A stretch of DNA of 51,009 nt from Dehalococcoidia bacterium (GTDB lineage: Bacteria; Chloroflexota; Dehalococcoidia; UBA2979), in NCBI GenBank assembly GCA_022451865.1, contig JAKUNM010000004.1, positions 1-51,009 of the forward strand, written 5' to 3'. Below the pieces are notes generated by a model. The model was not told the DNA's origin, ran no database searches, and was given only the letters and a program-made list of their open reading frames with translations. Shown here one piece after another: positions 5,930 to 44,269 of the stretch. The first letter of the stretch is position 1; every line of letters begins with the position of its first letter. The position numbers were made by a program, and so were the translations under genes.

Positions 5930-7486
5930 ATGGTATGGGAATCAGAAATAGATGAATTAGAGAAGAGACGTGAACTTGCTTATCTTATGGGAACCGAAGA
6001 TCGTGTAAAAAGGCACCATGATCGAGGACATCTCACAGTTCGTGAGCGTATTGCCTTATTAGTTGACAGTGGAAGTTTCCGAGAAAGAGGAGTATTGGCA
6101 GGAAAAGCTCATTATGAAAATTCTGAGCTTAAGGATTTTATCCCGTCAAATTATGTCATGGGAGTTGCGAAATTAGATGGACGTCCTGCAGTGGTAGGTG
6201 GAGATGACTTTACAGTTCGTGGAGGAGCTGCAGATGGTGCTGTAGGTGGTAAAGCAGGTCATGCTGAGAAAATGGCTCGCGAACTTCGTATTCCTGTAGT
6301 GCGAATGGTAGATGGAACAGGAGGTGGCGGTTCAGTAAAAACTATAGAAGATTTAGGTCGCACGTATATTCCTGGTAATACTAACTGGGATGTGATTGTA
6401 AATGCTATGTCAGAAATTCCAATGGTAGCTACCGCGATGGGCTCAATTGCAGGAATAGGCGCTGCACGTGTCGCAGCAAGCCATTTTTCTATAATGATCA
6501 AAGGTAATTCTCAAGTTTTTATTGCTGGTCCCCCTGTAGTAGAACGAGCATTTGGACAACCTATTGGTAAAGAAGAATTAGGTGGTTCAGGAATTCATGC
6601 ACATGGAAGCGGAGTAGTAGATAACGAAGTCGATACCGAAGAGGAAGCTTTTGAACAAATCAGAAAATTTTTATCGTATCTTCCCTCTAACTCTTGGGAA
6701 GTCCCTCCTAAAATCGAATCAACAGATCCGATTGATAGACGAGATGAAGAATTGCTTTCTGTGATACCCAAGGATAGAAGAAAGCCTCATGATATTCGAG
6801 CTTTGTTAAGCTATGTTTTAGACAGAGACAGTTTTTTTGAAATTGCACCATACTTTGGACCTTCTCTTGTTGTTGGTCTTGCTCGATTGGGTGGCTTTGC
6901 AGTAGGAGTGATTGCAAATGATCCTAGAAAGCTTGGAGGCTCTATGGATGGTGCTGCTTCAGATAAATTTGCTCGATTTATAGATTTGTTTGACACATTT
7001 AATTTGCCAGTAATCAATTTTGTCGATCAGCCAGGTTTTATGTTGGGAACAGCTGCAGAAAATTCTGGTGTTGCAAGACGTGGGGTACGAGCTTTAGCGG
7101 CAGTTAATCAAGCTGTCATTCCATGGGCATCTATAGTTATCAGGAGAGCATTCGGTGTAGCTGGTGCAGGGCATCAAAATCATTCTCGATGGAATTATAG
7201 AATCGCTTGGCCTTCAGGTGACTGGGGTTCTTTGCCGATTGAAGGCGGTGTAATGGCTGCATATCGACGTGAGATTGAAGAGGATGATGACCCAGAAAAA
7301 CGTAGAGAAGAAATTGAAAAACGCCTAAATGAGCTACGATCACCATTTCGCACGGCAGAGTCGTTCAATATTGAAGATATAATTGATCCTCGCGATACGC
7401 GGCCTTTGTTATGTGAATGGGTTGAACTTGCTTATAAGTCTTTACCAACCATAGTTGGTCCTAAGTTTAGAGGTACTAGACCTTAG
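5930..7486 (+). CDS. Acyl-CoA carboxylase carboxyltransferase subunit (propionyl-CoA carboxylase beta / methylmalonyl-CoA decarboxylase alpha family)
   Basis: 518 aa. Family-typical segments: GHLTVRERIALLVDSGSF, GGDDFTVRGGA, and PVINFVDQPGFMLG...GVARRG in the second crotonase-like half. Confidence 0.9.
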   Translation: MVWESEIDELEKRRELAYLMGTEDRVKRHHDRGHLTVRERIALLVDSGSFRERGVLAGKAHYENSELKDFIPSNYVMGVAKLDGRPAVVGGDDFTVRGGAADGAVGGKAGHAEKMARELRIPVVRMVDGTGGGGSVKTIEDLGRTYIPGNTNWDVIVNAMSEIPMVATAMGSIAGIGAARVAASHFSIMIKGNSQVFIAGPPVVERAFGQPIGKEELGGSGIHAHGSGVVDNEVDTEEEAFEQIRKFLSYLPSNSWEVPPKIESTDPIDRRDEELLSVIPKDRRKPHDIRALLSYVLDRDSFFEIAPYFGPSLVVGLARLGGFAVGVIANDPRKLGGSMDGAASDKFARFIDLFDTFNLPVINFVDQPGFMLGTAAENSGVARRGVRALAAVNQAVIPWASIVIRRAFGVAGAGHQNHSRWNYRIAWPSGDWGSLPIEGGVMAAYRREIEEDDDPEKRREEIEKRLNELRSPFRTAESFNIEDIIDPRDTRPLLCEWVELAYKSLPTIVGPKFRGTRP

Positions 7487-14522: not shown

Positions 14523-14595
14523 TTATTCGAAACATAATTATGTCTATAAATTGAGATAATATAACCCTATGCATCTATCAATCTTAGGCGTCAAT

Positions 14596-15105
14596 ATGGT
14601 GATGAATCAATTTAAGTTCCTATCCATTATTTATATTGGTATTGCTTTTATCTTTATATCCTGTTCAGGTCAGGAAAGCACTACCAGTGCTGAATTAAAT
14701 GATTCTAGAGATACTTTAGCGGTGGAAAGTACTTTACCTGCTGTAATGGTTAGTAGTGATTATGAGATCCCGAAAGGTTATGTTGATAATACCGGAGCGT
14801 ATATACCTCAAAATGGTAAACCTACTATTGTTTTTGTTGATTCAATTTGGTGAATGTCGTGTGCGAGAGCAAGGCCCGTGGTTCACGGTCTAAGAATGGA
14901 ATATCAAGATAGAATTAATTTCGTCATACTAGATTATATGATATCTGAACAGAGAGAATTTGCCTCTATCATGTCAGTCGCTGGTCATCCTGCTTTTGCA
15001 GTTATTGACGTCAGTCAAGGTCCAGAAGATGCTCGTAATCAAACATTTGGATTTCAGGACGAGTCAAAGTTACGGTCAATTTTAGAAGAATTAATAGCTA
15101 TATAA
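14596..15105 (+). CDS. Candidate selenocysteine-containing thioredoxin-fold lipoprotein (UxxC), with in-frame TGA at 14851..14853
   Basis: ORFs 14569..14853 and 14854..15105 share one frame and are separated only by TGA. The joined product has a lipoprotein-like signal (FLSIIYIGIAFIFISCSGQ), then GKPTIVFVDSIW-[TGA]-MSCARARPVVHGLRMEYQDRINFVILDY...AGHPAFAVID. This is the thioredoxin layout: beta1, W-C-x-x-C, alpha1, cis-Pro. Start could be 14569, 14596 or 14602. Confidence 0.55.
14872..14891 (+). promoter_or_regulatory. SECIS-like hairpin 18 nt downstream of the in-frame TGA
   Basis: AGG(C)CCGTG-GTT-CACGGTCT: a 5-bp GC-rich upper stem, a bulged C, a 3-bp lower stem (one G:U pair), and an apical loop GUU. 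The loop starts 30 nt after the U of the UGA. Confidence 0.4.
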
Positions 15106-17540: not shown

Positions 17541-18779
17541 ATGCCGAGTCTTCCAACAGAAGGTCCTCTTAAGGATTTGAAAGTTCTTGATTTGACATGG
17601 GTTTTATCCGGTCCTTTTGCAACAATGACCCTGTCTGATTTAGGTGCTGATGTTATCAAAGTTGAAAGACCACCTTATGGTGATGTATCACGGACTACAG
17701 GACCGCTAGTGAATGGTGAATCCGGATATTTTTTCTCTGTGAACAGAGGTAAACGTTCAATATCTGTGAATTTAAAATTAGATTCTGGGAAAGATATTTT
17801 TAAGGAATTAGTAAGAGAAGTAGATATATTAGTAGAAAATTTTACCCCTGGAGTGATGTCAAAACTAGGATTGGGTTATAGCGATTTGTCAGAAATTAAT
17901 GATCGCTTGATTTATGCTGCCATTTCAGGATATGGACAAACTGGAGTAATGAGTGAACTTCCTGCTCTTGATGTTATTGTTCAAGGTGCAGGTGGAGTGA
18001 TGTCTATAACTGGAGAACATGGTGGAACTCCAGTACGCCCTGGATTATCTCTCGCAGATGTTACTGCAGGACTGTATTGTGCCATTGGTATTTTATCTGC
18101 TGTGCATGAGCGAGAACGATCTGGGAAAGGGCAATTGATAGATATTTCTATGCTGGATAGTCAAATCGCAATTTTAGAAAATGCATATATGCGCTATCAC
18201 GTTACTGGAGAAATTCCTGAAAAATTAGGGACAAGACATCCAACAGCAGTTCCTTTTCAAGCATTTGAGACTTTAGACGGATATTTAGTATTGGCTCTTG
18301 CTTGGGGAGTACCTAATCAGTGGGCGTTGTTATGTGCTGAACTTGACTTACCTGAACTTATTGATGATGAAAGATTTGCTACGGCACAGGCTCGTTCAAA
18401 AAATCATGATTTACTTGAACCTCTTCTTTCGAAAGCTTTTTTAACAAAAAACACTCAAAATTGGGTGGGTGCACTAAGTAAATTTGGTATCCCTTGTGGT
18501 CCTTTGAACGATATCCCCACTGTTACAAAAATGGATCAGGTGAAAAGTCGAAATATGTTTATCGATGTTCCACACCACACTATTGGTAATATACCTCTGA
18601 CTAATACTCCTATTAAGTTGTCTAGGACTCCTGGAGGGATTAAAGGTACCTCTCCAGATATGGGGCAAGATACGGAAGATATTTTGAAGGAATTTTTGAA
18701 ACTAGATCAATCTGAAATTGAAGATCTTTTGCAGAATGAGATCGTTAGTAATTTTCGACCACCTGTAGATCTTGGATGA
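17541..18779 (+). CDS. Family III CoA-transferase (CaiB/BaiF/Frc family)
   Basis: 412 aa. LKVLDLTWVLSGPFATMTLSDLGADVIKVE, and GLSLADVTAG carrying the conserved Asp. SD GAGGTGA lies upstream of the ATG. Confidence 0.85.
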   Translation: MPSLPTEGPLKDLKVLDLTWVLSGPFATMTLSDLGADVIKVERPPYGDVSRTTGPLVNGESGYFFSVNRGKRSISVNLKLDSGKDIFKELVREVDILVENFTPGVMSKLGLGYSDLSEINDRLIYAAISGYGQTGVMSELPALDVIVQGAGGVMSITGEHGGTPVRPGLSLADVTAGLYCAIGILSAVHERERSGKGQLIDISMLDSQIAILENAYMRYHVTGEIPEKLGTRHPTAVPFQAFETLDGYLVLALAWGVPNQWALLCAELDLPELIDDERFATAQARSKNHDLLEPLLSKAFLTKNTQNWVGALSKFGIPCGPLNDIPTVTKMDQVKSRNMFIDVPHHTIGNIPLTNTPIKLSRTPGGIKGTSPDMGQDTEDILKEFLKLDQSEIEDLLQNEIVSNFRPPVDLG

Positions 18780-24948: not shown

Positions 24949-27900
24949 TTATTCATAACGAAGTGCTTCGGCTACTGGTACTTTTGAAGCACTCCGTGCT
25001 GGTAAAATTGTCATGATTGCGCTTGCGAGATAAGCAATTCCTACAACTATTAACACCCGTGTCCAAGGAATTGCGACGTCAATGTCTGTACCATCAGTAA
25101 AATCTGGTGATGTCATCAGGTTATATCCTAACGCTGCCCCTAGGGATACTCCAAGTATTATTCCTGTTAGAGCAATAAATGATGATTCCAGGAAAAAGGA
25201 AAAGGCGATGAGTTTTCGTGAATATCCGATGGCACGTAACATACCTATTTGTTGTCTACGTTCTGTTACGGTTCGAAATGCAATTACACCCAGTGCTGCA
25301 ACCCCCACAATAAGTCCTAAGCTCATAAAACCTTGGAATAGTGAAGAAAAAGCATTAGAAGTGCTTGCACTTTCTTGAATTTTTTGACTCAGTGAAATTG
25401 CTTGAACACCTTTATTGATTAACGATCTTTCGATATCGTTTGCTATTCGAACAGTATTTTCGACATCGTGCTGATTTGTTACAAGAAAGTAGGAATCAGG
25501 ATAATTATTCTTATGCATTTCACCAAATGCTTCATAATTTATGAATAAAGAATTCCATTGTGGTACTGTGCCGCTGATAATGGGTGATTCTACAAAACCA
25601 ATTATGTAGAAAATTTGTTCTTCATTTTCATCTGCTACTTTAAAAGTTACTGCGATAGGTTCCCAAGGCGTCTCTTGCAATTCGGTAATAGAACCTTCTA
25701 TTTGTAATCCTTCAGGTGGTGGACCAAATCCACCGTCATCTCTAACAAAAATTTGAGGATTACCAAGAGCAAAATTATTATTGTTTTTTAATGCTAGCAT
25801 TACAGACTGATCACTTGAATATCCTTTCGCAAATGTTGAGAGAGGGAAGTCAGCACTGTCTATAAAGTCACTATCAATACCAGAAACTTGGTAGCGTTTA
25901 AATTTGTCATTAATTTTTTCTGTCGGTCTCATTTTGAATTGATGTGATTGTAGTTTTCCAATTGAACGTATTTCGGTATCGAGATCATAACCTTGATTGA
26001 TGAGTTCAGTTCTCAAATCAGGAAGAGCATTGTTTTGGTTTGCAATAATTTGTATATCAAATCCACCCTGAGCATCTTCTCCAGTGAATAATTGTGTAAA
26101 GTTATAATTTAATGTGGCCATTACTACCAGACTAAATACAACTAATGTAAACATTGATAATGTCATGCCTGTTCGGAATTTGGATGCAAGCGGGTATGAA
26201 ATAGCAGTACGCACTGCTGGTGTAATTCCTCCGAGTATGGGTTGGAAAAACCCAGCCACCCTAACAAGTATATCTGCATTGAAAATCACAAATAATGTAC
26301 TTGCTGCTGTAATACAAATACCTGAAACAAAGAACATCTCAATATTCCCTGATATATCAGCGTGACCTAATCCGAATAGCTTGAATAATGCATTTACAGG
26401 ATCCTGCCACACTTCTGCAGTTCCACTTGTGGTTGCCCCTTCAATAAAAAGAGAAAATGGTAAAGGTAATAACCAATACCAAAGTGTAATAATTGAAGCT
26501 ATTGTAAAAGTTAAACGAGCCTGTGCCTTGAAATGAACTGCCATCATCGCAATAGAAAAGATAGCTAATGTCATTCCAGCTGTGTATGCGAATGCCTGTT
26601 GAGAGATCCAACCACCCCAATAGACCGCAATACAACCAATAAGGAGCATTAATAAAGCCCATCCTCCAGTATTTTGGTGGTTACTTGCCCATTGTTTTGT
26701 CCGGAGTAATAACCAAGTGATAAAGGCAATAATATTGAAAGAGATCCACCACAAAATGAGCAATTTTGATTTTTTATGATTTATATGTGTTGCGCCCCAA
26801 ATATAGAATGCAGAGATTACAATACCTGCTAACAAACTGGCTCCATATGTAGTGAGCCCATATATAAATCCGAAAAATACAAGAACTGCACCCAGGCTAA
26901 CTAAAACAAACCAAATTAAATACCAAATGGACGCACCTGTTGCCGCTATTAATCCTGAGAATGAAGTATCTTTACTTTTTAATAAGTCAGGTTCAGGGAT
27001 ATCTCTTATTGCGCGGACGATATTGATGTTTGCAGATCTCCATGAAGCCAAAGTAACAGTGATAAATGTGATTACGATCCCAAGGAGATAAGCCACAAAA
27101 AAGCCAGTCCAATTAAAATGAAAGCTTAGTTCGAGACCAAAATCATCGAACACTAACGATTCTAATATTTGTAGCAATGCATAGGAAACACCTAATCCGA
27201 GAGCTGCACCTATAAATGCAGATACAATGTTGTAGGTCATACCTTCAGCAATAAAAGCAAATGTGAGTTGTAATCGATTCATCCCTATCGCTCTTGCCAT
27301 ACCCATTTCTGCTTTTCTTTCTGCAGCCAAAAGAACAAAAGTTAAGAAGATGAGCATTATTCCTGCGGCTATAGAAAAGAGTCCAAAGATAAGAAAAAAG
27401 GTGACAAAAATAGATCCGATGAGTTCTGCAAAATCAATTGCTTCAGATTTATTTTGAGTAGTACGTATAGGTAGGTCGTTTTTTTTGATTAATTCTTTAA
27501 AGTCATTCTCTATTCCAGGGATTAGGTCTAATGTTCCACGTATTCCTCCCTGTGCTGAAATTAGTATGTTATCTACTCGTAAAGGACTTTTAAGAATTGA
27601 TCGAGAGCTTTCGATGTTTGTTACTACTCCACCCCAACCTCCGTCATTACTAAAATGAGAAACGATATTATTATCATGGATAATGTCTTTAACTTTGAAG
27701 TCGTATGGTGAATTTTCAATATATATTCGGATAGTTTCATTTTTTGATATTTGTATCTCTTCAGCTAGCAGATAGGTTACATAAACTTCATTTTTTTCTA
27801 GATTTTTAATATCTAATTGGCAATTTATATTTTCTAATGCATTTGTATTGGGTTCTTCACATTCAGATACAGAAGTTAAAGGACCGAAGGCTTCAAATGA

Positions 27901-28368
27901 AAGATCGTCTATACCAACCAGAACAGCTTGTGGTGAAGAAAGTAGTTGATCAAGATTAATTGCAGGTACATAAGCTTTTACGGTACCTGTTACTCCATCA
28001 ACGTTCTCATTTGATGCAAAGTGTTGACGTACTTGTTCGACGTGTTTTTGTTGGATTCCTTCAGGCGAATCACGTTTTACTTCCCCGATGACATCTACAT
28101 TTCCAAAACCCCAATAGGTTCCATTGGTAACAGAATAGGCTACAGTATCTCCTGTAGCGAAAGCTGCGCTTATAATGAGAGTTGATAGCATTAACCCTAT
28201 TACGATTAATGCAGTTTGAGTTTTTCGTCGTATTACATTTCTGAATCCCATTGATAATAATAATCGATGGCGCCAACCAATATAGATTAGTAATGCAATA
28301 ATTAAACTAGTGACTAGCATGAGGCCAGATAAAATCGAAGTTAAAGAAACACCGAAAAGACTATCCAT
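24949..28368 (-). CDS. Fused double FtsX/MacB-type ABC transporter permease with an extra polytopic insert
   Basis: 1139 aa. Two MacB-like units (FRNVIRRKTQTALIVIG... and LASKFRTGMTLSMF...). Each has a large extracytoplasmic domain followed by an FtsX 3-helix bundle (ERKAEMGMARAIGMNRLQL / ERRQQIGMLRAIGYSRKLI). About 300 aa of additional hydrophobic helices lie between them. Confidence 0.85.
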   Translation of the reverse strand: MDSLFGVSLTSILSGLMLVTSLIIALLIYIGWRHRLLLSMGFRNVIRRKTQTALIVIGLMLSTLIISAAFATGDTVAYSVTNGTYWGFGNVDVIGEVKRDSPEGIQQKHVEQVRQHFASNENVDGVTGTVKAYVPAINLDQLLSSPQAVLVGIDDLSFEAFGPLTSVSECEEPNTNALENINCQLDIKNLEKNEVYVTYLLAEEIQISKNETIRIYIENSPYDFKVKDIIHDNNIVSHFSNDGGWGGVVTNIESSRSILKSPLRVDNILISAQGGIRGTLDLIPGIENDFKELIKKNDLPIRTTQNKSEAIDFAELIGSIFVTFFLIFGLFSIAAGIMLIFLTFVLLAAERKAEMGMARAIGMNRLQLTFAFIAEGMTYNIVSAFIGAALGLGVSYALLQILESLVFDDFGLELSFHFNWTGFFVAYLLGIVITFITVTLASWRSANINIVRAIRDIPEPDLLKSKDTSFSGLIAATGASIWYLIWFVLVSLGAVLVFFGFIYGLTTYGASLLAGIVISAFYIWGATHINHKKSKLLILWWISFNIIAFITWLLLRTKQWASNHQNTGGWALLMLLIGCIAVYWGGWISQQAFAYTAGMTLAIFSIAMMAVHFKAQARLTFTIASIITLWYWLLPLPFSLFIEGATTSGTAEVWQDPVNALFKLFGLGHADISGNIEMFFVSGICITAASTLFVIFNADILVRVAGFFQPILGGITPAVRTAISYPLASKFRTGMTLSMFTLVVFSLVVMATLNYNFTQLFTGEDAQGGFDIQIIANQNNALPDLRTELINQGYDLDTEIRSIGKLQSHQFKMRPTEKINDKFKRYQVSGIDSDFIDSADFPLSTFAKGYSSDQSVMLALKNNNNFALGNPQIFVRDDGGFGPPPEGLQIEGSITELQETPWEPIAVTFKVADENEEQIFYIIGFVESPIISGTVPQWNSLFINYEAFGEMHKNNYPDSYFLVTNQHDVENTVRIANDIERSLINKGVQAISLSQKIQESASTSNAFSSLFQGFMSLGLIVGVAALGVIAFRTVTERRQQIGMLRAIGYSRKLIAFSFFLESSFIALTGIILGVSLGAALGYNLMTSPDFTDGTDIDVAIPWTRVLIVVGIAYLASAIMTILPARSASKVPVAEALRYE

Positions 28369-29057
28369 TAGGTGAATTCTTCATTTTCAATTTGCCCATC
28401 ACGCATCTGAATGATTCTGTTGCATTGTTTTGCTATTCCAGAATCATGTGTGACGATTACGAATGTCTGCCCTTGTTCTTTATTTAATGATTTCATCAAA
28501 TCCATAATTTCTGTAGCCGTTTGTGAATCTAGATCGCCTGTTGGCTCATCTGCCCAAACAATTGCTGGATTGTTAACGAGTGCTCTTGCAATTGTTACTC
28601 TTTGGCGTTGCCCTCCAGAGAGTTGTGCAGGTTTATGAGTTTTCCAATCAGTCAACCCAACTAAATCCAGCATTTTAAGGGACTGCTCTCGTGCCTCACT
28701 AGGACGTACTCCTGAAACTAGTAATGGAAGTTCAATATTTTCGATTGCATTCAATACGGGAAGTAGATTGTAAAATTGAAAAATAAAACCCATACGTCGG
28801 GCCCTGTAATCGGTTTTACTATTATCATCCAATTGAGATAAATCAGTATTTTCAATATGAATTGTTCCACTATTGATGTCATCAATTCCTGAAAGACAAT
28901 TCAAAAGTGTAGTTTTTCCACACCCTGACGGGCCCATGATAGCAACCATGGAGCCTCTTTCTATGTTAATCGAGAGATCTTGCAAGGCACGAACGTGCAC
29001 CTCGCCAGTATCGTATGTTTTAAAAATATTTTGTGCAGAGATAATTTGCTCTACCAT
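28368..29057 (-). CDS. ABC transporter ATP-binding protein (MacB/LolD-type)
   Basis: 229 aa. Walker A GPSGCGKTT, signature LSGGQRQR, Walker B IVWADEPTGDLD, H-loop VTHD. Shares 1 nt with the start of the downstream permease. Confidence 0.9.
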   Translation of the reverse strand: MVEQIISAQNIFKTYDTGEVHVRALQDLSINIERGSMVAIMGPSGCGKTTLLNCLSGIDDINSGTIHIENTDLSQLDDNSKTDYRARRMGFIFQFYNLLPVLNAIENIELPLLVSGVRPSEAREQSLKMLDLVGLTDWKTHKPAQLSGGQRQRVTIARALVNNPAIVWADEPTGDLDSQTATEIMDLMKSLNKEQGQTFVIVTHDSGIAKQCNRIIQMRDGQIENEEFT

Positions 29058-30472: not shown

Positions 30473-31621
30473 ATGACTTTGTCTAAATTAAAACCTTTAC
30501 CAGTTTTGTTGAAAGAAATATTGTCGATTCCAACAACTTCGTACAATGAGCATTTAGTGATTGATTACATACGTGAATTTGCAATTGATAGAGGGCTAAA
30601 CTTTAAGTTAGATCAATTTGGGAATGCATATATTTTCTATAATCATGGGGATAGCTCTCGACCATTAGTTTTGCAGGCTCATACAGATCATCCTGCATTT
30701 ATTGTGGAGGAGATTTCTGAGGGAAAATTGGTTCTAAAATTTTTGGGTGGTTTGTCAGCACAATATGGTATAGGTGAAAAGATTAAAATCCACGGTGATG
30801 CTCTACCTCAAAATGGCGTGACTGCGACGGTCGAAACAATACAGAGTCATGAATTACACACTGGTACTTCTAGCCGTAGAATTATTGGTGCGATTGCTAA
30901 AGTCAACTCTGTTAAGAATATTAATATTGGTGACATTGGTGTTTGGGATGTAGAGCATTTTTCGCTTAAAAGAAAAATTGTTCATGCCTTACAATGTGAT
31001 GATTTAGTTGGATGTGCAATTGTTTTATCTACTATTGATCGAATGGTATTTGGTGAACATCAAGGTAATGTAATTGGTTTATTTACTCGAGCTGAAGAAG
31101 TTGGACTTGAAGGTGCAGCAGCTAGTGCTGCAGACGGTTTGTTACCTAAAGATTCACTTGTGATATCTATAGAAACTTCTTCCTCTGAGGGTGGACGTGC
31201 TGAACAAGGTCAGGGTGCTATTATTCGTGTTGGAGACAAACAGCATATTTTTTCTCCTAAAATGTCAATGTGGATGACATCGGTTGCTAATCGATTGAAA
31301 ACCATACACGATAATTTTCTTTATCAGCGAAAACTTATGGACGCAGGAGGGACAGAAGCTACGGCATTTGATCTCTTAGGTTATGAGACAGGGGCAGCTT
31401 GTATTGCCCTTGGTAATTGGCATAATGCAGGTAAAAAAGGGAAAATTGAAGCAGAAACAGTACATATTGATGATGTCCAGAATTTAATTCTTTTATGTGA
31501 AGAACTTGCAAAAAATACATCACATTTTTTGCAAGTTCACGAAGAAATGGTTAGTTTTTGGAAAAAACGTGCTTTAGACGTAACGCCCCGTTTAATCGAT
31601 AGTGCTCAATCAAATACTTGA
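30473..31621 (+). CDS. M42-family (FrvX-like) aminopeptidase/hydrolase
   Basis: 382 aa. LQAHTDHPAFIV (AHxDxxxF), CDDLVGCA, FTRAEEVGLEGA, and GGTEA near the C-terminus, in M42 order. Confidence 0.7.
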   Translation: MTLSKLKPLPVLLKEILSIPTTSYNEHLVIDYIREFAIDRGLNFKLDQFGNAYIFYNHGDSSRPLVLQAHTDHPAFIVEEISEGKLVLKFLGGLSAQYGIGEKIKIHGDALPQNGVTATVETIQSHELHTGTSSRRIIGAIAKVNSVKNINIGDIGVWDVEHFSLKRKIVHALQCDDLVGCAIVLSTIDRMVFGEHQGNVIGLFTRAEEVGLEGAAASAADGLLPKDSLVISIETSSSEGGRAEQGQGAIIRVGDKQHIFSPKMSMWMTSVANRLKTIHDNFLYQRKLMDAGGTEATAFDLLGYETGAACIALGNWHNAGKKGKIEAETVHIDDVQNLILLCEELAKNTSHFLQVHEEMVSFWKKRALDVTPRLIDSAQSNT

Positions 31622-32188
31622 TTCTAGTGTTTTCCAAACATTTTCTTCTGTTTCTTGGTCAACTCTACCTTCTCTAAGTAGCCTTACGACTAAGCGGCTG
31701 TCGTAACCTCTTCGACTTAAGATTTTTTTGAGCAGATCAATGCTCTCTCTTTTTTCTGTTAATATCGCGACCAATAATTCCCATTCTATTGGAGTGCATA
31801 ACACGATAATGTTCTCGCAATGAACGCTAACTAGTGCATCCCATAGTGATGGTATTTGAGTAGGCTTTATGGAGTCATACCTACCATATATTGTGGGATC
31901 ACCATGAATTGTGAAATTATGCCCATTTGAACTTAGCTGTATAGCTGTTGGTGAACTAATATTTTCTTTTATTGACTTTATGAATTGATTTGATGGGTCT
32001 TTTAATAATTTTAAGATGTCTCTTCTTGTTGTAATTTCTGTATTATCTGCGTCGCAGGGAACATCTTGTAATTGAAGTGATATCTTTCCATTTACTGCCC
32101 AAAGTGCATGATCATCAATACGATGTATTTCTTTAATTATCCTTTTAAGTGGGTCAACTCTTGAATTGTCACTTATTTTTTTGTTCAC
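31610..32188 (-). CDS. Hypothetical protein, weakly nucleotidyltransferase-fold-like
   Basis: 192 aa ORF with coding-like composition. WAVNGKISLQLQ...CDADNTEI could be a degenerate G[SK]-x(n)-DxD minimal nucleotidyltransferase motif. No confident family. Its 3' end overlaps the convergent M42 gene by 12 nt. Confidence 0.45.
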   Translation of the reverse strand: MNKKISDNSRVDPLKRIIKEIHRIDDHALWAVNGKISLQLQDVPCDADNTEITTRRDILKLLKDPSNQFIKSIKENISSPTAIQLSSNGHNFTIHGDPTIYGRYDSIKPTQIPSLWDALVSVHCENIIVLCTPIEWELLVAILTEKRESIDLLKKILSRRGYDSRLVVRLLREGRVDQETEENVWKTLESSI

Positions 32189-33001: not shown

Positions 33002-36000
33002 TTAGCTGCAACCAGTAGTTGTTCCACACGCCATACATTTAAGACAAGTCCCATTTCGAACCATCATAAGCTGTCCACATTCAGGGCAAGGGTCACCTTC
33101 AAATCCGCTCTGTCTAGCTTGTTCTACTAGTACTAGATCTTCAGATTTTGTGGTGTGCGGACTTAATTCAATGACTGATGAAGCAGTAATTCCAGAAGGT
33201 AATTGTTGCGTCAATTTATCTGTGCTAACTACTTTTTCTCTTGCTATATCAATCGAATCGGCAAGTTCAACTTTAGATCCTATATCTATTGGCATATCAT
33301 CATCAGCACTAGGATCGGTAGTTAATTCAACAGGTCCTAAATGTGCTAGTTCATCTCTGTCAAGATATGTCACAGCTAGTTCTCTGAAAATATAATCTAT
33401 AATTGAACTCGAAAATTGAATTCTATCGTGACCTGTCACCATGCCGTTGGGTTCAAATTTGGTAAAGACAAAAGTATCTACAAATTTTTCTAATGGGACT
33501 CCGTATTGTAGACCCATTGAGACGGCAATAGCGAAACAATTCATAAGACTTCTAAAAGCTGCTCCATCCTTTGCTGTATCAATAAAAAGTTCACCTACAC
33601 GAGGTTTCTCACCTGGTTCTTTTTCGAACTCTCCAGTGTGAATATAGATTGTGTGGCCACCAACTTTTGCTTTTTGTGCGTAGCCCGATCGTCTTGCAGG
33701 GAGCGATTCTCTTTGTCCACGACCAATTGCGTGGAGCATTTTTTCAGCTGCTATCACTGCTGGGTGTTGTTCGGAATCTAATAATTCTTCATTATCTTCA
33801 TAATCATCGAAAATTGCTGCAGCTAATGGTTGGGAAAGTTTTGACCCATCACGATAAAGTGCAAGTGCTTTAATCATCGATTGTGAAGCTTCCATATAAA
33901 CTTCTTTTACATCTTTAATAGTTGATTCAGCAGGCATATTGATAGTTTTGCTGATTGCTCCAGCGATAAACGGTTGCGCTGCTGACATAATACGAACATG
34001 TGCAAGTGGTTCTATATAACGTTTTCCATATTTTCCACATTTGTTGGCACAGTCGAAGACTGAGTAGTCTGATTCTTTAAGATGTGGGGCTCCTTCTACC
34101 GTCATACGACCAAGAATATGGTCGTTTGCTTGTTCTATTTGATCTGATGTAAAACCAAGATTCTGTAACAAATTAAATGATGGATTATTAAGATCTTCAT
34201 CATTTATCTGTAACGTTTCTTTACAAAAATCATCTCCTAATTGGTATCTATTGAATACAAAACTAATGTGAAAGGCGGTACTTAGTGCTTGGTCTAGACT
34301 ATCTAATAAAGGCTGAGTAAATCCATGTTCTGCCAAGGAGGTTCGATTGATAAGAGGAGCTCCTTCAAGTCTTTGAGTACCCACAGCATATTTGATGATT
34401 TCATCAATGTTATTTCGACTGTATCCCAAGCGTTTAAGGGCAGTTGGAACTGATTCGTTAATAATACGAAAGTAACCTCCTCCTGCTAGTTTTTTAAATT
34501 TGACTAACGCGAAATCAGGCTCTACACCTGTTGTATCACAGTCCATTAATAAGCCTATAGTACCTGTAGGTGCTATTAGCGTTGTTTGCGCATTTCGGTA
34601 GCCATGTTTTTCACCTAGTTCTAGTGCACGATCCCAAGATTGACATGCAACAGCATATAATTCTTTTGGAGTAGACACAGATTCAATGCCTTTAGGATAA
34701 ACAGTTAATCCTTCGTAATCAGAATGTACTGAGTTATATGCTGCACGTCTGTGATTACGTATGACTCGTAACATTTCATTGCTATTATCGCTATATCTGG
34801 GGAAAGCTCCAAGTTCACTAGCCATTTCGGCGGAAGTAGCGTATGAGTCACCTGTCATGATTGCAGTTAGTGCTCCAGTCCATCCTAAAGCTTCGTTGGA
34901 ATCGTAGGGAATACCTTGAAGCATTAGCAATGCACCTAAATTTGCATACCCCAGTCCTAGTGTTCTGTATTCATATGAAAGTAGAGCAATTTGATCACTT
35001 GGATATTGTGCCATGAGTACCGAAATCTCAAGAACAATTGTCCACAGTCGTATTGCATGACGATATCCTTCAATATCGAAATCACCAGTTTCGAGATCGG
35101 TAAACGCAAGCAGGTTTATTGATGCAAGATTGCAAGCAGTGTCATCTAAGAACATGTATTCACTACAAGGGTTTGAGCCATTAATTCTCCCACCGGAGGG
35201 AGAGGTATGCCATTCATTGATTGTTGTATCAAATTGAAGACCAGGATCGGCAGAATTCCAGGCTGCTTGCCCTATTTTATCCCAGAGTTCTTGTGCTTTG
35301 ACTGTCTTATAGGTTGATCCGTCAGTGCGATTAGTAAGGTTCCATGATTCATTTTCCTCCACAGCTTTCAGGAAATCTGAATTAACTCTTACGGAGTTAT
35401 TTGAATTTTGCCCTGAGACAGACATGTACGCTTCACCTTGCCAGTCACTGTCAAATTCATCAAATTCAAATGAATGTTCACCTTGTTCAATTAACTGCAA
35501 GACGCGCTGAATATACCCTTCAGGAACTGCATCTTGACGGGCTAGGCGTATAGCCTTGCGTAAACTTTTATTTTCTTCCAAGACATCATTTTCTTTAGCG
35601 TAACTGAAAATTTCATTTAAATGACGTTTCACTACACGTGATCCAGTGATTAATGAGGCTACTTTTTGCTCTTCTTTTACTTTCCAATCTACGAATTCTT
35701 CAATGTCAGGATGATCTGCATCTACAATAACCATTTTTGCAGCTCGTCGTGTAGTTCCTCCAGATTTAATTGCACCTGCGGCTCGATCTCCAATTTTAAG
35801 AAAAGACATTAAACCTGAAGATTTGCCCCCTCCGGAAAGGCTTTCATTTGCTCCTCTAATATTAGAGAAATTCGAACCCGTGCCTGATCCGTACTTAAAG
35901 ATACGGGCTTCACGAGTCCATAGATCCATAATTCCACCTTCATTAACAAGATCATCTGCAACGGACTGAATAAAACAAGCATGTGGTTGTGGACGTTCAT

Positions 36001-36547
36001 ATGCACTTGTTGATTGAGTCATTTCGCCATTATCTGGATTGACATATGAATGTCCCTGTGCTGGTCCTTCAATGCCGTACGACCAGTTAAGGCCAGTGTT
36101 AAACCACTGAGGTGAATTAGGTGCTGATCGTTGACTCGCCATCATATGTACGAGTTCATCGTAGAATGTACGTGCATCTTCTTTTGTATCAAAATAATTG
36201 TATTTTGTACCCCAATAAGCCCACGTGCCAGCTAGTCGGTGGAAGGTTTGCCTAGCATCTGTTTCACATGTAAATTCAGTTTTAGCAGTTGGTTTGCGAC
36301 GTCGCATCCAATTTGGGATTCCTTTTTCACTTATTGCTGTCGTTTCAACTGGGACTCCAGCTTTGCGGAAGTATTTTTGCGCCATTATATCAACAGCAAC
36401 CTGTGAAAATTGCTCAGGCATTTGAATATCTAGTGCTTCAAAAACAACAGATCCATCAGGGTTCACAATTTTGGATGATCTGTTTGTAAAGTTAATTCCT
36501 TCATATGGGTCATGACCAGCTTGGGTAAAAAAGCGCTGTATACGCAT
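33002..36547 (-). CDS. nrdJ: Class II (adenosylcobalamin-dependent) ribonucleotide reductase
   Basis: 1181 aa. RNR barrel motifs (SNPCSEY with the thiyl Cys, ACNLASINL, TLIAPTGTIG) and the C-terminal Cys-rich tail CPECG...CLKCMACG typical of long NrdJ proteins. SD AGGAAGGA lies upstream of the ATG. Confidence 0.9.
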   Translation of the reverse strand: MRIQRFFTQAGHDPYEGINFTNRSSKIVNPDGSVVFEALDIQMPEQFSQVAVDIMAQKYFRKAGVPVETTAISEKGIPNWMRRRKPTAKTEFTCETDARQTFHRLAGTWAYWGTKYNYFDTKEDARTFYDELVHMMASQRSAPNSPQWFNTGLNWSYGIEGPAQGHSYVNPDNGEMTQSTSAYERPQPHACFIQSVADDLVNEGGIMDLWTREARIFKYGSGTGSNFSNIRGANESLSGGGKSSGLMSFLKIGDRAAGAIKSGGTTRRAAKMVIVDADHPDIEEFVDWKVKEEQKVASLITGSRVVKRHLNEIFSYAKENDVLEENKSLRKAIRLARQDAVPEGYIQRVLQLIEQGEHSFEFDEFDSDWQGEAYMSVSGQNSNNSVRVNSDFLKAVEENESWNLTNRTDGSTYKTVKAQELWDKIGQAAWNSADPGLQFDTTINEWHTSPSGGRINGSNPCSEYMFLDDTACNLASINLLAFTDLETGDFDIEGYRHAIRLWTIVLEISVLMAQYPSDQIALLSYEYRTLGLGYANLGALLMLQGIPYDSNEALGWTGALTAIMTGDSYATSAEMASELGAFPRYSDNSNEMLRVIRNHRRAAYNSVHSDYEGLTVYPKGIESVSTPKELYAVACQSWDRALELGEKHGYRNAQTTLIAPTGTIGLLMDCDTTGVEPDFALVKFKKLAGGGYFRIINESVPTALKRLGYSRNNIDEIIKYAVGTQRLEGAPLINRTSLAEHGFTQPLLDSLDQALSTAFHISFVFNRYQLGDDFCKETLQINDEDLNNPSFNLLQNLGFTSDQIEQANDHILGRMTVEGAPHLKESDYSVFDCANKCGKYGKRYIEPLAHVRIMSAAQPFIAGAISKTINMPAESTIKDVKEVYMEASQSMIKALALYRDGSKLSQPLAAAIFDDYEDNEELLDSEQHPAVIAAEKMLHAIGRGQRESLPARRSGYAQKAKVGGHTIYIHTGEFEKEPGEKPRVGELFIDTAKDGAAFRSLMNCFAIAVSMGLQYGVPLEKFVDTFVFTKFEPNGMVTGHDRIQFSSSIIDYIFRELAVTYLDRDELAHLGPVELTTDPSADDDMPIDIGSKVELADSIDIAREKVVSTDKLTQQLPSGITASSVIELSPHTTKSEDLVLVEQARQSGFEGDPCPECGQLMMVRNGTCLKCMACGTTTGCS

Positions 36548-42048: not shown

Positions 42049-44269
<2,221 letters not shown>

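Follow-up and report, generated by a model that had tools for sequence, protein, structure and literature searches.

A probable selenocysteine-decoding gene with a predicted lipid-anchored thioredoxin-fold product in marine Chloroflexota

Several thioredoxin-fold selenoproteins that carry selenocysteine (Sec, U) in a UxxC motif have been described. The marine 'Trx-like 1' family (COG0526, UxxC) is the third most abundant selenoprotein family in Global Ocean Sampling (GOS) data, with 321 sequences (PMC2398784). A Sec thioredoxin (PF00085, UxxC) is listed as experimentally verified, and thioredoxin, thiol:disulfide interchange, redoxin, DsbA-like and DsbG-like (NF041057) proteins are all listed as selenoproteins (PMC13188914). 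Our study concerns a gene at positions 14569–15105 (forward strand) of a 51,009-nucleotide (nt) stretch of DNA from a Dehalococcoidia bacterium (GCA_022451865.1, contig JAKUNM010000004.1, positions 1–51,009), hereafter the window. The gene is interrupted by an in-frame TGA, which we read with high confidence as a Sec codon, making this a Sec-decoding selenoprotein gene of marine Chloroflexota. Its product, of about 170–178 amino acids (aa), would very probably be an oxidoreductase with a thioredoxin fold, predicted to be lipid-anchored and extracytoplasmic, in which Sec serves as the attacking residue of a W-U-M-S-C motif.

The gene appears as two open reading frames (ORFs) in a single frame: the first, 14569–14853, encodes 94 aa and stops at the TGA at 14851–14853, and the second, 14854–15105, encodes 83 aa and adjoins it directly. 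An original prediction for this DNA had described two ORFs parted only by that TGA; its coordinates are confirmed, and the motifs it quoted (FISCSGQ, VFVDSIW-[TGA]-MSC and AGHPAFAVI) are all present. Read through the TGA, the complete selenoprotein gene forms one ORF (14569–15105, forward strand) that ends at the TAA at 15103–15105, with the translation ...GKPTIVFVDSIW-[TGA]-MSCARARPVVHGLRMEYQDRINFVILDY...AGHPAFAVIDV...LEELIAI and a length of 178 aa from the ATG at 14569 or 169 aa from an alternative ATG at 14596. The start codon at the position of 14569 is ATG in the L004/L005 clade of relatives and GTG in L001 and L006. The UGA at 14851–14853 (forward strand) would place Sec at the first, nucleophilic position of the redox motif; the resolving Cys of the UxxC is encoded by TGT at 14860–14862 (forward strand) and is invariant as C89 in the close subfamily (alignment A5) and near-invariant in alignment A4. 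Farther on, a His-Pro pair (CAT CCT, 14986–14991, forward strand) stands before strand beta3 at the thioredoxin cis-proline position, and its Pro (P132) is invariant in A4. Apart from the TGA, the window copy is free of any lesion. Gene callers split the gene, as the original prediction had expected: public records hold it as fragments of 75–95 aa named 'hypothetical protein' or 'thioredoxin-like negative regulator of GroEL'.

TGA also works as a normal stop in this genome, a point that the same prediction had made from two genes and that four more ORFs of the window now extend. TGA terminates six of the window's 34 long ORFs, among them the two genes it named, for a CoA-transferase (18777–18779, forward strand) and enolase (42959–42961, reverse strand), and each has a second in-frame stop 1–16 codons on, compared with 83 open codons behind the TGA at 14851. 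Abutting ORFs are not rare by themselves. Seven in-frame TGAs of the window, 14851 among them, are flanked on each side by 50 or more open codons; none of the other six lies on the coding strand of annotated genes, and five of these run antisense to long genes. It is accordingly homology and comparative data that carry the case. Chance is excluded because homology to the Pfam Thioredoxin domain crosses the junction, because the TGA column is shared by 40 orthologous sequences, and because the hairpin behind the TGA covaries.

With Cys placed at the TGA, the joined protein matches the Pfam Thioredoxin domain (PF00085) at 27.0 bits, against a gathering threshold of 23.5, over residues 70–162, and the match spans the junction; precomputed PF00085 matches are also on record for Cys homologues. 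Compared with solved thioredoxins, the family profile reaches an E-value of 5e-17, and the recoded column falls on the first Cys of WCGPC/WCGHC. The fold was read by proxy from the AlphaFold model of P0009, a full-length Cys orthologue that is 39% identical to the window protein. This model, with a predicted local distance difference test (pLDDT) score above 90 over residues 70–170, has strands at 76–81, 107–112, 132–136 and 143–148 and helices at 86–102, 116–124 and 153–165, in the order beta-alpha-beta-alpha-beta-beta-alpha. Cys85 of P0009, which corresponds to the TGA column, is modelled at the N-terminus of helix 1, and His129-Pro130 immediately precedes the modelled strand 3 (132–136). 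The closest solved structures to the model are classical thioredoxins, with target-normalised template modelling (TM) scores of 0.73–0.88 and root-mean-square deviations of 1.3–1.8 Å. As modelled, P0009 is a minimal thioredoxin fold with Cys at the start of helix 1. Neither half of the window gene could fold alone, because the TGA separates strand 1, on its upstream side, from all the other elements, on its downstream side. The original prediction had matched the joined frame to the thioredoxin fold element for element, and both the thioredoxin profile matches and the confident P0009 model bear this out.

Our homologue set comprises 53 family loci with GC contents of 37–75%, which amount to 42 distinct sequences after the codon; an unbiased metagenome scan with X at the recoded column had given 44 loci on top of those from the searches described below. 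The codon at the column is TGA in 40 of the 42 distinct sequences and TGC in two (L009 and L025), and never TAA or TAG. Counted by locus, 51 of 53 carry TGA, and they come from independent samples, assemblers and lineages. Beyond the 53 loci, L060 and L061 bring one further distinct sequence with TGA, which comes from a Dehalococcoidia metagenome-assembled genome (MAG) of NCBI. The first protein search returned only N-terminal fragments, likewise ending ...VFVDSIW, and the contigs that encode them have the same TGA, an abutting 83-aa ORF and the synteny of the window. The close relatives found by a scan of a genome collection were two marine Chloroflexota MAGs, both with TGA.

A HMMER search with the C-terminal half gave two types of match. 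The first consists of full-length proteins with Cys at the TGA column, as WCFFC in P0009, WCPNC in P0011, WCPPC in P0008 and WC(S/T)TC in the remoter P0014, P0016 and P0017. The second consists of fragments of about 75 aa that start 'MHGLR' and are the tails of TGA-column genes from genomes of 67–74% GC. In these high-GC relatives the codon behind the TGA is CCG, so that there is no start codon there, and the first possible start comes 4–9 codons later, within a conserved xxC-A-x-x-R-P. The stop had been predicted to fall on the column of the nucleophilic Cys, and P0009, P0011 and P0008 do place Cys at that column; the comparison of homologues suggested along with it has now been run and finds TGC or TGA at the aligned column and strongly conserved sequence 3' of the TGA. 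Among four species-level clades of the AT-rich group, which differ by synonymous divergence (dS) values of 0.4–0.9, the ratio of nonsynonymous to synonymous divergence (dN/dS) in the same frame is 0.24–0.46 upstream of the TGA and 0.10–0.20 downstream. Judged from these ratios, both halves are under purifying selection in one frame.

A few relatives are damaged. L053 (match 900–1255) has a frameshift immediately before the motif, L055/L056 (TGA at L055:4022) has an out-of-frame stretch after NFVIL and regains the frame later, and L036 (TGA at 390) has a broken hairpin and odd substitutions. These may be pseudogenes or assembly errors; they form a small minority, and the window gene is not thereby a pseudogene. 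Two other hits of the metagenome scan, L058 and L059, are not homologues and were discarded as false positives.

Duplicates and small Cys-bearing neighbours also occur among the loci. A second TGA paralogue, ...FVVVGAQW-[TGA]-PHCRRAKPVVNGLRLEFQDRVNFVI, is found at L013:7031 (forward strand), downstream by about 1 kb from the first copy, whose TGA is at 5971; the two recoded genes stand in tandem, with DUF3179 and Redoxin genes directly upstream of the pair, and L014 and L015 are similar to the second-paralogue type of L013. When the window and the high-GC loci were scanned for further TGA-interrupted genes, this paralogue was the only one recovered, the rest being artefacts such as gene-boundary stops. 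In three high-GC loci (L021:3180, L022:54 and L054:1386, forward strand), a small glutaredoxin- or thioredoxin-like ORF with the motif YVE(E/Q)G-C-(T/P)-S-C, its Cys encoded by TGC, lies 1.5–3 kb upstream of the family gene.

Bacterial Sec insertion sequence (bSECIS) elements are described as having a stem of at least 4 base pairs (bp), a loop of 3–9 nt that starts with G followed by G or U, and a distance of 16–37 nt between UGA and loop (PMC13188914, Fig. 2), together with a minimum free energy (MFE) of −7.5 kcal/mol or lower (PMC13188914). A hairpin of this type lies inside the coding sequence at 14873–14891 (forward strand), at nt 23–41 counted from the U of the UGA. Its 7-bp stem and loop read GGCCCGUG-GUU-CACGGUCU, in which the apical loop at 14881–14883 is G31, U32 and U33. 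The window and nearly all relatives have the bSECIS geometry, and the high-GC members, at −9 to −16 kcal/mol, also have the energy. Leaving aside the degraded L036, all TGA-form sequences have the hairpin in their MFE or centroid fold.

The pairing is supported by covariation among 39 distinct TGA sequences. In the 7-bp helix 93.8% of cells pair, compared with at most 50% when the partners are slid by 1–3 columns, and compensatory double changes, in 15 cells altogether, mark five of the seven pairs: 24:40 from G-C to A-U, 25:39 from C-G to U-A, 27:37 from C-G to U-A, 28:36 from G-C to A-U and 29:35 from U-A to G-C. None of 500 shuffles reached the observed covariation. Several of the doubles couple a non-synonymous with a synonymous change, for example Gly to Ser (GGU to AGU) with CCC to CCU, as selection on RNA pairing predicts. 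In the loop, G31 and U32 are invariant. The Cys-form genes lack the hairpin, with energies of −2.0 kcal/mol in L009 and −0.5 kcal/mol in L025 against −6 to −16 kcal/mol in TGA forms; L025 encodes the same peptide, RPVVHSLR, as the Sec-form L001 clade, but its codons destroy the hairpin. A bSECIS element behind the TGA had been named as a point for checking in the original prediction, and the hairpin found there both fits the bSECIS model and covaries. Nucleotide conservation extends more widely than the core hairpin (window 14851–14913; alignment A6, columns 6–21 and 55–60). The outer helices proposed by RNAalifold (6–11/55–60 and 12–14/19–21) pair in 82–88% of cells with few compensatory changes, which is weak support; they may be an extended lower stem or may reflect only codon conservation (E-Y-Q-D).

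The N-terminus suggests an exported lipoprotein. By inspection, a signal peptide with a lipobox occupies 14569–14664 (forward strand) and ends in F-I-S-C, of which the Cys is Cys32 (TGT, 14662–14664). A variable, low-complexity linker and then a conserved N-terminal module, VSSDYEIPKGYVDNTGAYIPQNGKP, fill the segment from 14665 to 14820 (forward strand) before beta1 (alignments A4 and A5). The linker is rich in Pro, Thr and Ala in high-GC relatives and is modelled at low confidence in P0009, whose model also has an N-terminal helix at residues 6–21. Across the family the module behind the linker reads DYxxPxxxVDxTGAYLPxNGKP. A lipobox-type Cys is kept in all A4 homologues that have an N-terminus (SCSG, ACGS, SCAG, GCTS, GCSS, ACND, ACTS and GCAN). 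Compared with the pattern [LVI][ASTVI][GAS]-C of a signal peptidase II substrate, many relatives have textbook lipoboxes (L-A-G-C, L-A-A-C, V-V-G-C and L-L-A-C), and that of L060, AAACGS, is clean. From sequence, conservation of the lipobox Cys predicts export and a lipid anchor.

The relatives are named in their sources as 'Chloroflexota bacterium', '[Chloroflexi bacterium]' or '[Dehalococcoidia bacterium]'. The gene order Sortilin-like, SIR2, thiamine pyrophosphate (TPP) enzyme, DUF1932, recoded gene, M20 peptidase, EamA, CoA-transferase and GltB is preserved from the window, at 38% GC, to relatives at 70% GC, and this conserved synteny argues for vertical inheritance in one lineage. The immediate neighbours are DUF1932 upstream and the M20 peptidase downstream; the latter is convergent and so is not co-transcribed with the recoded gene, and no partner gene is conserved beside it. 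One syntenic locus, L060 (GCA_041390625.1, JAWKPM010000001.1, range 342636–362878), lies on a 381-kb contig of an NCBI 'Dehalococcoidia bacterium' MAG, follows the window over about 20 kb and has the same TGA and hairpin.

By its gene content and synteny the lineage resembles SAR202, a label that we infer. In the literature we found no link between SAR202 and selenium; in the SAR202 genome papers examined 'selen' occurs only in author names. Selenoproteins of Chloroflexi have been tabulated (PMC1794560), an 8/4-type tRNA-Sec has been reported in Chloroflexi (PMC5389517), and two MAGs of Dehalococcoidia, one with 49 selenoprotein genes and the other with 46, stand in the top ten of BSepDB (PMC13326102). 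Literature support for the Sec trait here is thus at the level of phylum or class only.

Several observations weigh against reading the gene as a lipid-anchored selenoprotein. The genes selA, selB and selD and tRNA-Sec were not found within the 51-kb window or the fetched flanks; ARAGORN found no tRNA-Sec in the window and 30 loci, and Pfam annotation of the window's long ORFs gave no SelA, SelB, SelD, CcdA/DsbD or Msr. Neither a SECIS nor a tRNA-Sec match was returned by Rfam at gathering thresholds or by a permissive scan of the junction. The core hairpin of the window, at −7.1 kcal/mol, is borderline to the −7.5 kcal/mol limit, and its clade spans −6.2 to −7.7 kcal/mol. A 60-nt segment of the window folds at −10.1 kcal/mol, and the 60-nt fold of 14851–14910 is no better than those of shuffled sequences (z = +0.63). 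The invariance of G31 and U32 cannot be separated fully from constraint on the protein, since the two are the first bases of a conserved Val codon; in two of the four Cys forms the Val is not conserved. The DNA controls of the Cys form number two genes. At the N-terminus, F-I-S-C is atypical at position −3, and the lipoprotein call for the window is made by inspection. Redox direction, partner and substrates rest on inference.

Other explanations of the interrupted frame fare worse. A pseudogene, or a sequencing or assembly error of TGT or TGC, has next to no probability in our view: further damage does occur in a few metagenomic relatives (L053, L055/L056 and L036), but the same TGA recurs in 51 of 53 loci and in L060 and L061, both halves are under purifying selection at dS up to about 0.9, the codon is never TAA or TAG, and the window copy is otherwise intact. 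Sequencing error in particular is excluded because independent assemblies from many samples and lineages share the TGA. TGA has been reassigned to sense in some bacteria, and a genome-wide reassignment to Trp or Gly, or unprogrammed near-cognate read-through, would also open the frame. We regard this as just as negligible, since six well-supported window genes end in TGA with a second in-frame stop 1–16 codons on, and homologues align Cys at the column, not Trp or Gly.

Two further explanations deserve slightly more consideration, and both are very improbable. The frame could hold two small genes, or a case of termination and reinitiation, with the first ending at Trp94 and the second starting at the ATG of TGAATG. 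Public gene callers all report two ORFs, and in the low-GC clade an ATG does follow the TGA immediately; in high-GC relatives, however, that codon is CCG and the next start is 4–9 codons on, and even in the window GGTGA abuts the ATG with no spacer and is badly placed as a ribosome-binding site. The junction lies inside the thioredoxin domain, the Pfam match and the modelled fold alike, Cys-form relatives are single full-length proteins, and two genes would leave unexplained why the hairpin tracks the TGA. Alternatively, the same hairpin could direct insertion of Cys by a SelB paralogue together with a tRNA-Cys that resembles tRNA-Sec and has the anticodon UCA (selB*/selC*), and here the conserved TGA, the pairing of Cys with TGA at the column and the hairpin do not tell Sec from Cys. 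Systems of this kind exist, and a selC* tRNA-Cys(UCA), when paired with an engineered variant of CysRS, decoded an opal codon in E. coli (PMC5389517). The selC* genes have been reported in anaerobic Firmicutes, Thermodesulfobacteria, Nitrospirae and Deltaproteobacteria, not in Chloroflexi, which carry genuine tRNA-Sec (PMC5389517) and include Dehalococcoidia MAGs with large selenoproteomes (PMC13326102). Inserting Cys through a TGA and a hairpin would also have no obvious advantage over TGC, and the TGC forms drop the hairpin. This route we hold to be about as improbable as two genes.

If the TGA is a Sec codon, as we favour, expression might proceed as follows. SelB with Sec-tRNA(Sec) would bind the hairpin and, competing with release factor 2, bring Sec to the UGA. 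Export would take place with the preprotein unfolded, and removal of the signal peptide would be followed by lipidation of Cys32. Sec95 and Cys98 would then alternate at the cell surface between a selenolate/thiol and a selenenylsulfide state as they exchange with the disulfides or oxidised thiols of client proteins that are exported. Electrons would probably come from a CcdA/DsbD-type membrane protein encoded elsewhere. Under selenium shortage, translation would stop at W94 and leave an inactive 94-aa stub. The fold is nearest to classical thioredoxins and not to DsbA, which favours a reductase or isomerase role over that of an oxidase.

The window has other features. A 320-aa ORF without a Pfam match (42049–43011, reverse strand) overlaps with its 5' end the 3' end of the enolase gene (42959–44257) by 53 nt, and a 192-aa ORF, also without a Pfam match (31610–32188, reverse strand), overlaps by 12 nt the 3' end of an M42 peptidase gene (30473–31621) on the opposite strand. 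A class II (B12-dependent) ribonucleotide reductase of 1181 aa (33002–36547, reverse strand) has its barrel domain matched in two stretches, along with a TSCPD domain; such a length hints at an insertion, which may be an intein. A very long FtsX-type permease of 1139 aa stands beside an ATP-binding cassette (ABC) ATPase (24949–29057, reverse strand), in an arrangement like that of MacB-type transporters; the pair lies immediately downstream of gltBD and on the strand opposite to it.

The gene is unannotated, yet it is of the well-known marine UxxC thioredoxin-like selenoprotein class and will not surprise a specialist; knowledge of Sec decoding and of thioredoxin-fold selenoproteins is unchanged by it. 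What it adds is a probable exported selenoprotein for a marine Chloroflexota lineage. Many Chloroflexota MAGs and metagenomes gain a corrected annotation once the fragments are joined, and 39 distinct sequences could seed a family model that includes the SECIS. The Sec form is almost fixed, with 40 distinct TGA sequences against four Cys forms, which suggests that selection favours Sec chemistry outside the cytoplasm, with resistance to over-oxidation and fast exchange as the likely benefits of Sec. More tentatively, and with the odds somewhat against it, these genes could constitute a distinct, uncatalogued subfamily, a lipid-anchored cell-surface 'selenothioredoxin' that is vertically inherited in Chloroflexota (Dehalococcoidia, SAR202-like) and sometimes tandem-duplicated. 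If so, abundant bacteria of the oxic ocean would have a standing need for selenium at the cell envelope.

The signal behind the codon resembles the bSECIS model in being a stem-loop directly 3' of the UGA inside the coding sequence, with an upper stem of 7–8 bp, a loop of 3–5 nt that begins with G and U, and 26–27 nt between UGA and loop. It differs in that C30 and C34, which flank the loop, cannot pair in most high-GC members, where the model's commonest form is the N1/N2 pattern.

Among protein families, TlpA, ResA, StoA and CcmG (DsbE) are exported or membrane-anchored thioredoxin folds with W-C-x-x-C motifs that act as specific extracytoplasmic reductants fed by CcdA or DsbD. TlpA-like domains are Cys-based and have an extra insertion and an N-terminal extension, unlike the minimal thioredoxin fold modelled for the present family through its proxy P0009. 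NCBIfam models for StoA (21 bits against a cutoff of 210, E 2e-4) and dsbE (16.5 against 123, E 5e-3) match below threshold, and the ResA and TlpA models match weakly, on distant Cys homologues only. Classical thioredoxin is cytoplasmic, has a WCGPC motif and lacks a signal peptide, whereas in the present family a predicted lipoprotein signal and a linker precede a W-U-M-S-C or W-U-P-x-C motif; the score against the thioredoxin equivalog of NCBIfam is 29 bits, with a cutoff of 96.8. With the Sec thioredoxin, the family shares the Pfam Thioredoxin domain and Sec at the N-terminal, nucleophilic Cys of the CxxC.

No dedicated NCBIfam selenoprotein model matches the family. The Rcas_1661 (seleno)lipoprotein (NF041057, 'DsbG-like'), whose name refers to a gene of Roseiflexus (Chloroflexi), is alike in having Sec and Cys forms and in the exported, lipid-anchored UxxC design that is predicted for the present family. 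Its profile covers 247 positions against about 100 for the present domain; it gives no match for the window protein and matches P0011 in the signal region only (12.3 bits, E 0.087, cutoff 190). The closest resemblance in habitat and motif is to Trx-like 1 of the Sargasso Sea and GOS data (PMC2398784), which is likewise marine and thioredoxin-like, with a UxxC in which Sec comes first and with Cys homologues. Trx-like 1 is a broad, COG-defined bin, and the predicted lipoprotein signal and conserved N-terminal module of the present family are not described for it in PMC2398784. Given the PF00085 match and the UxxC motif, the present family is likely to belong within that broad bin.

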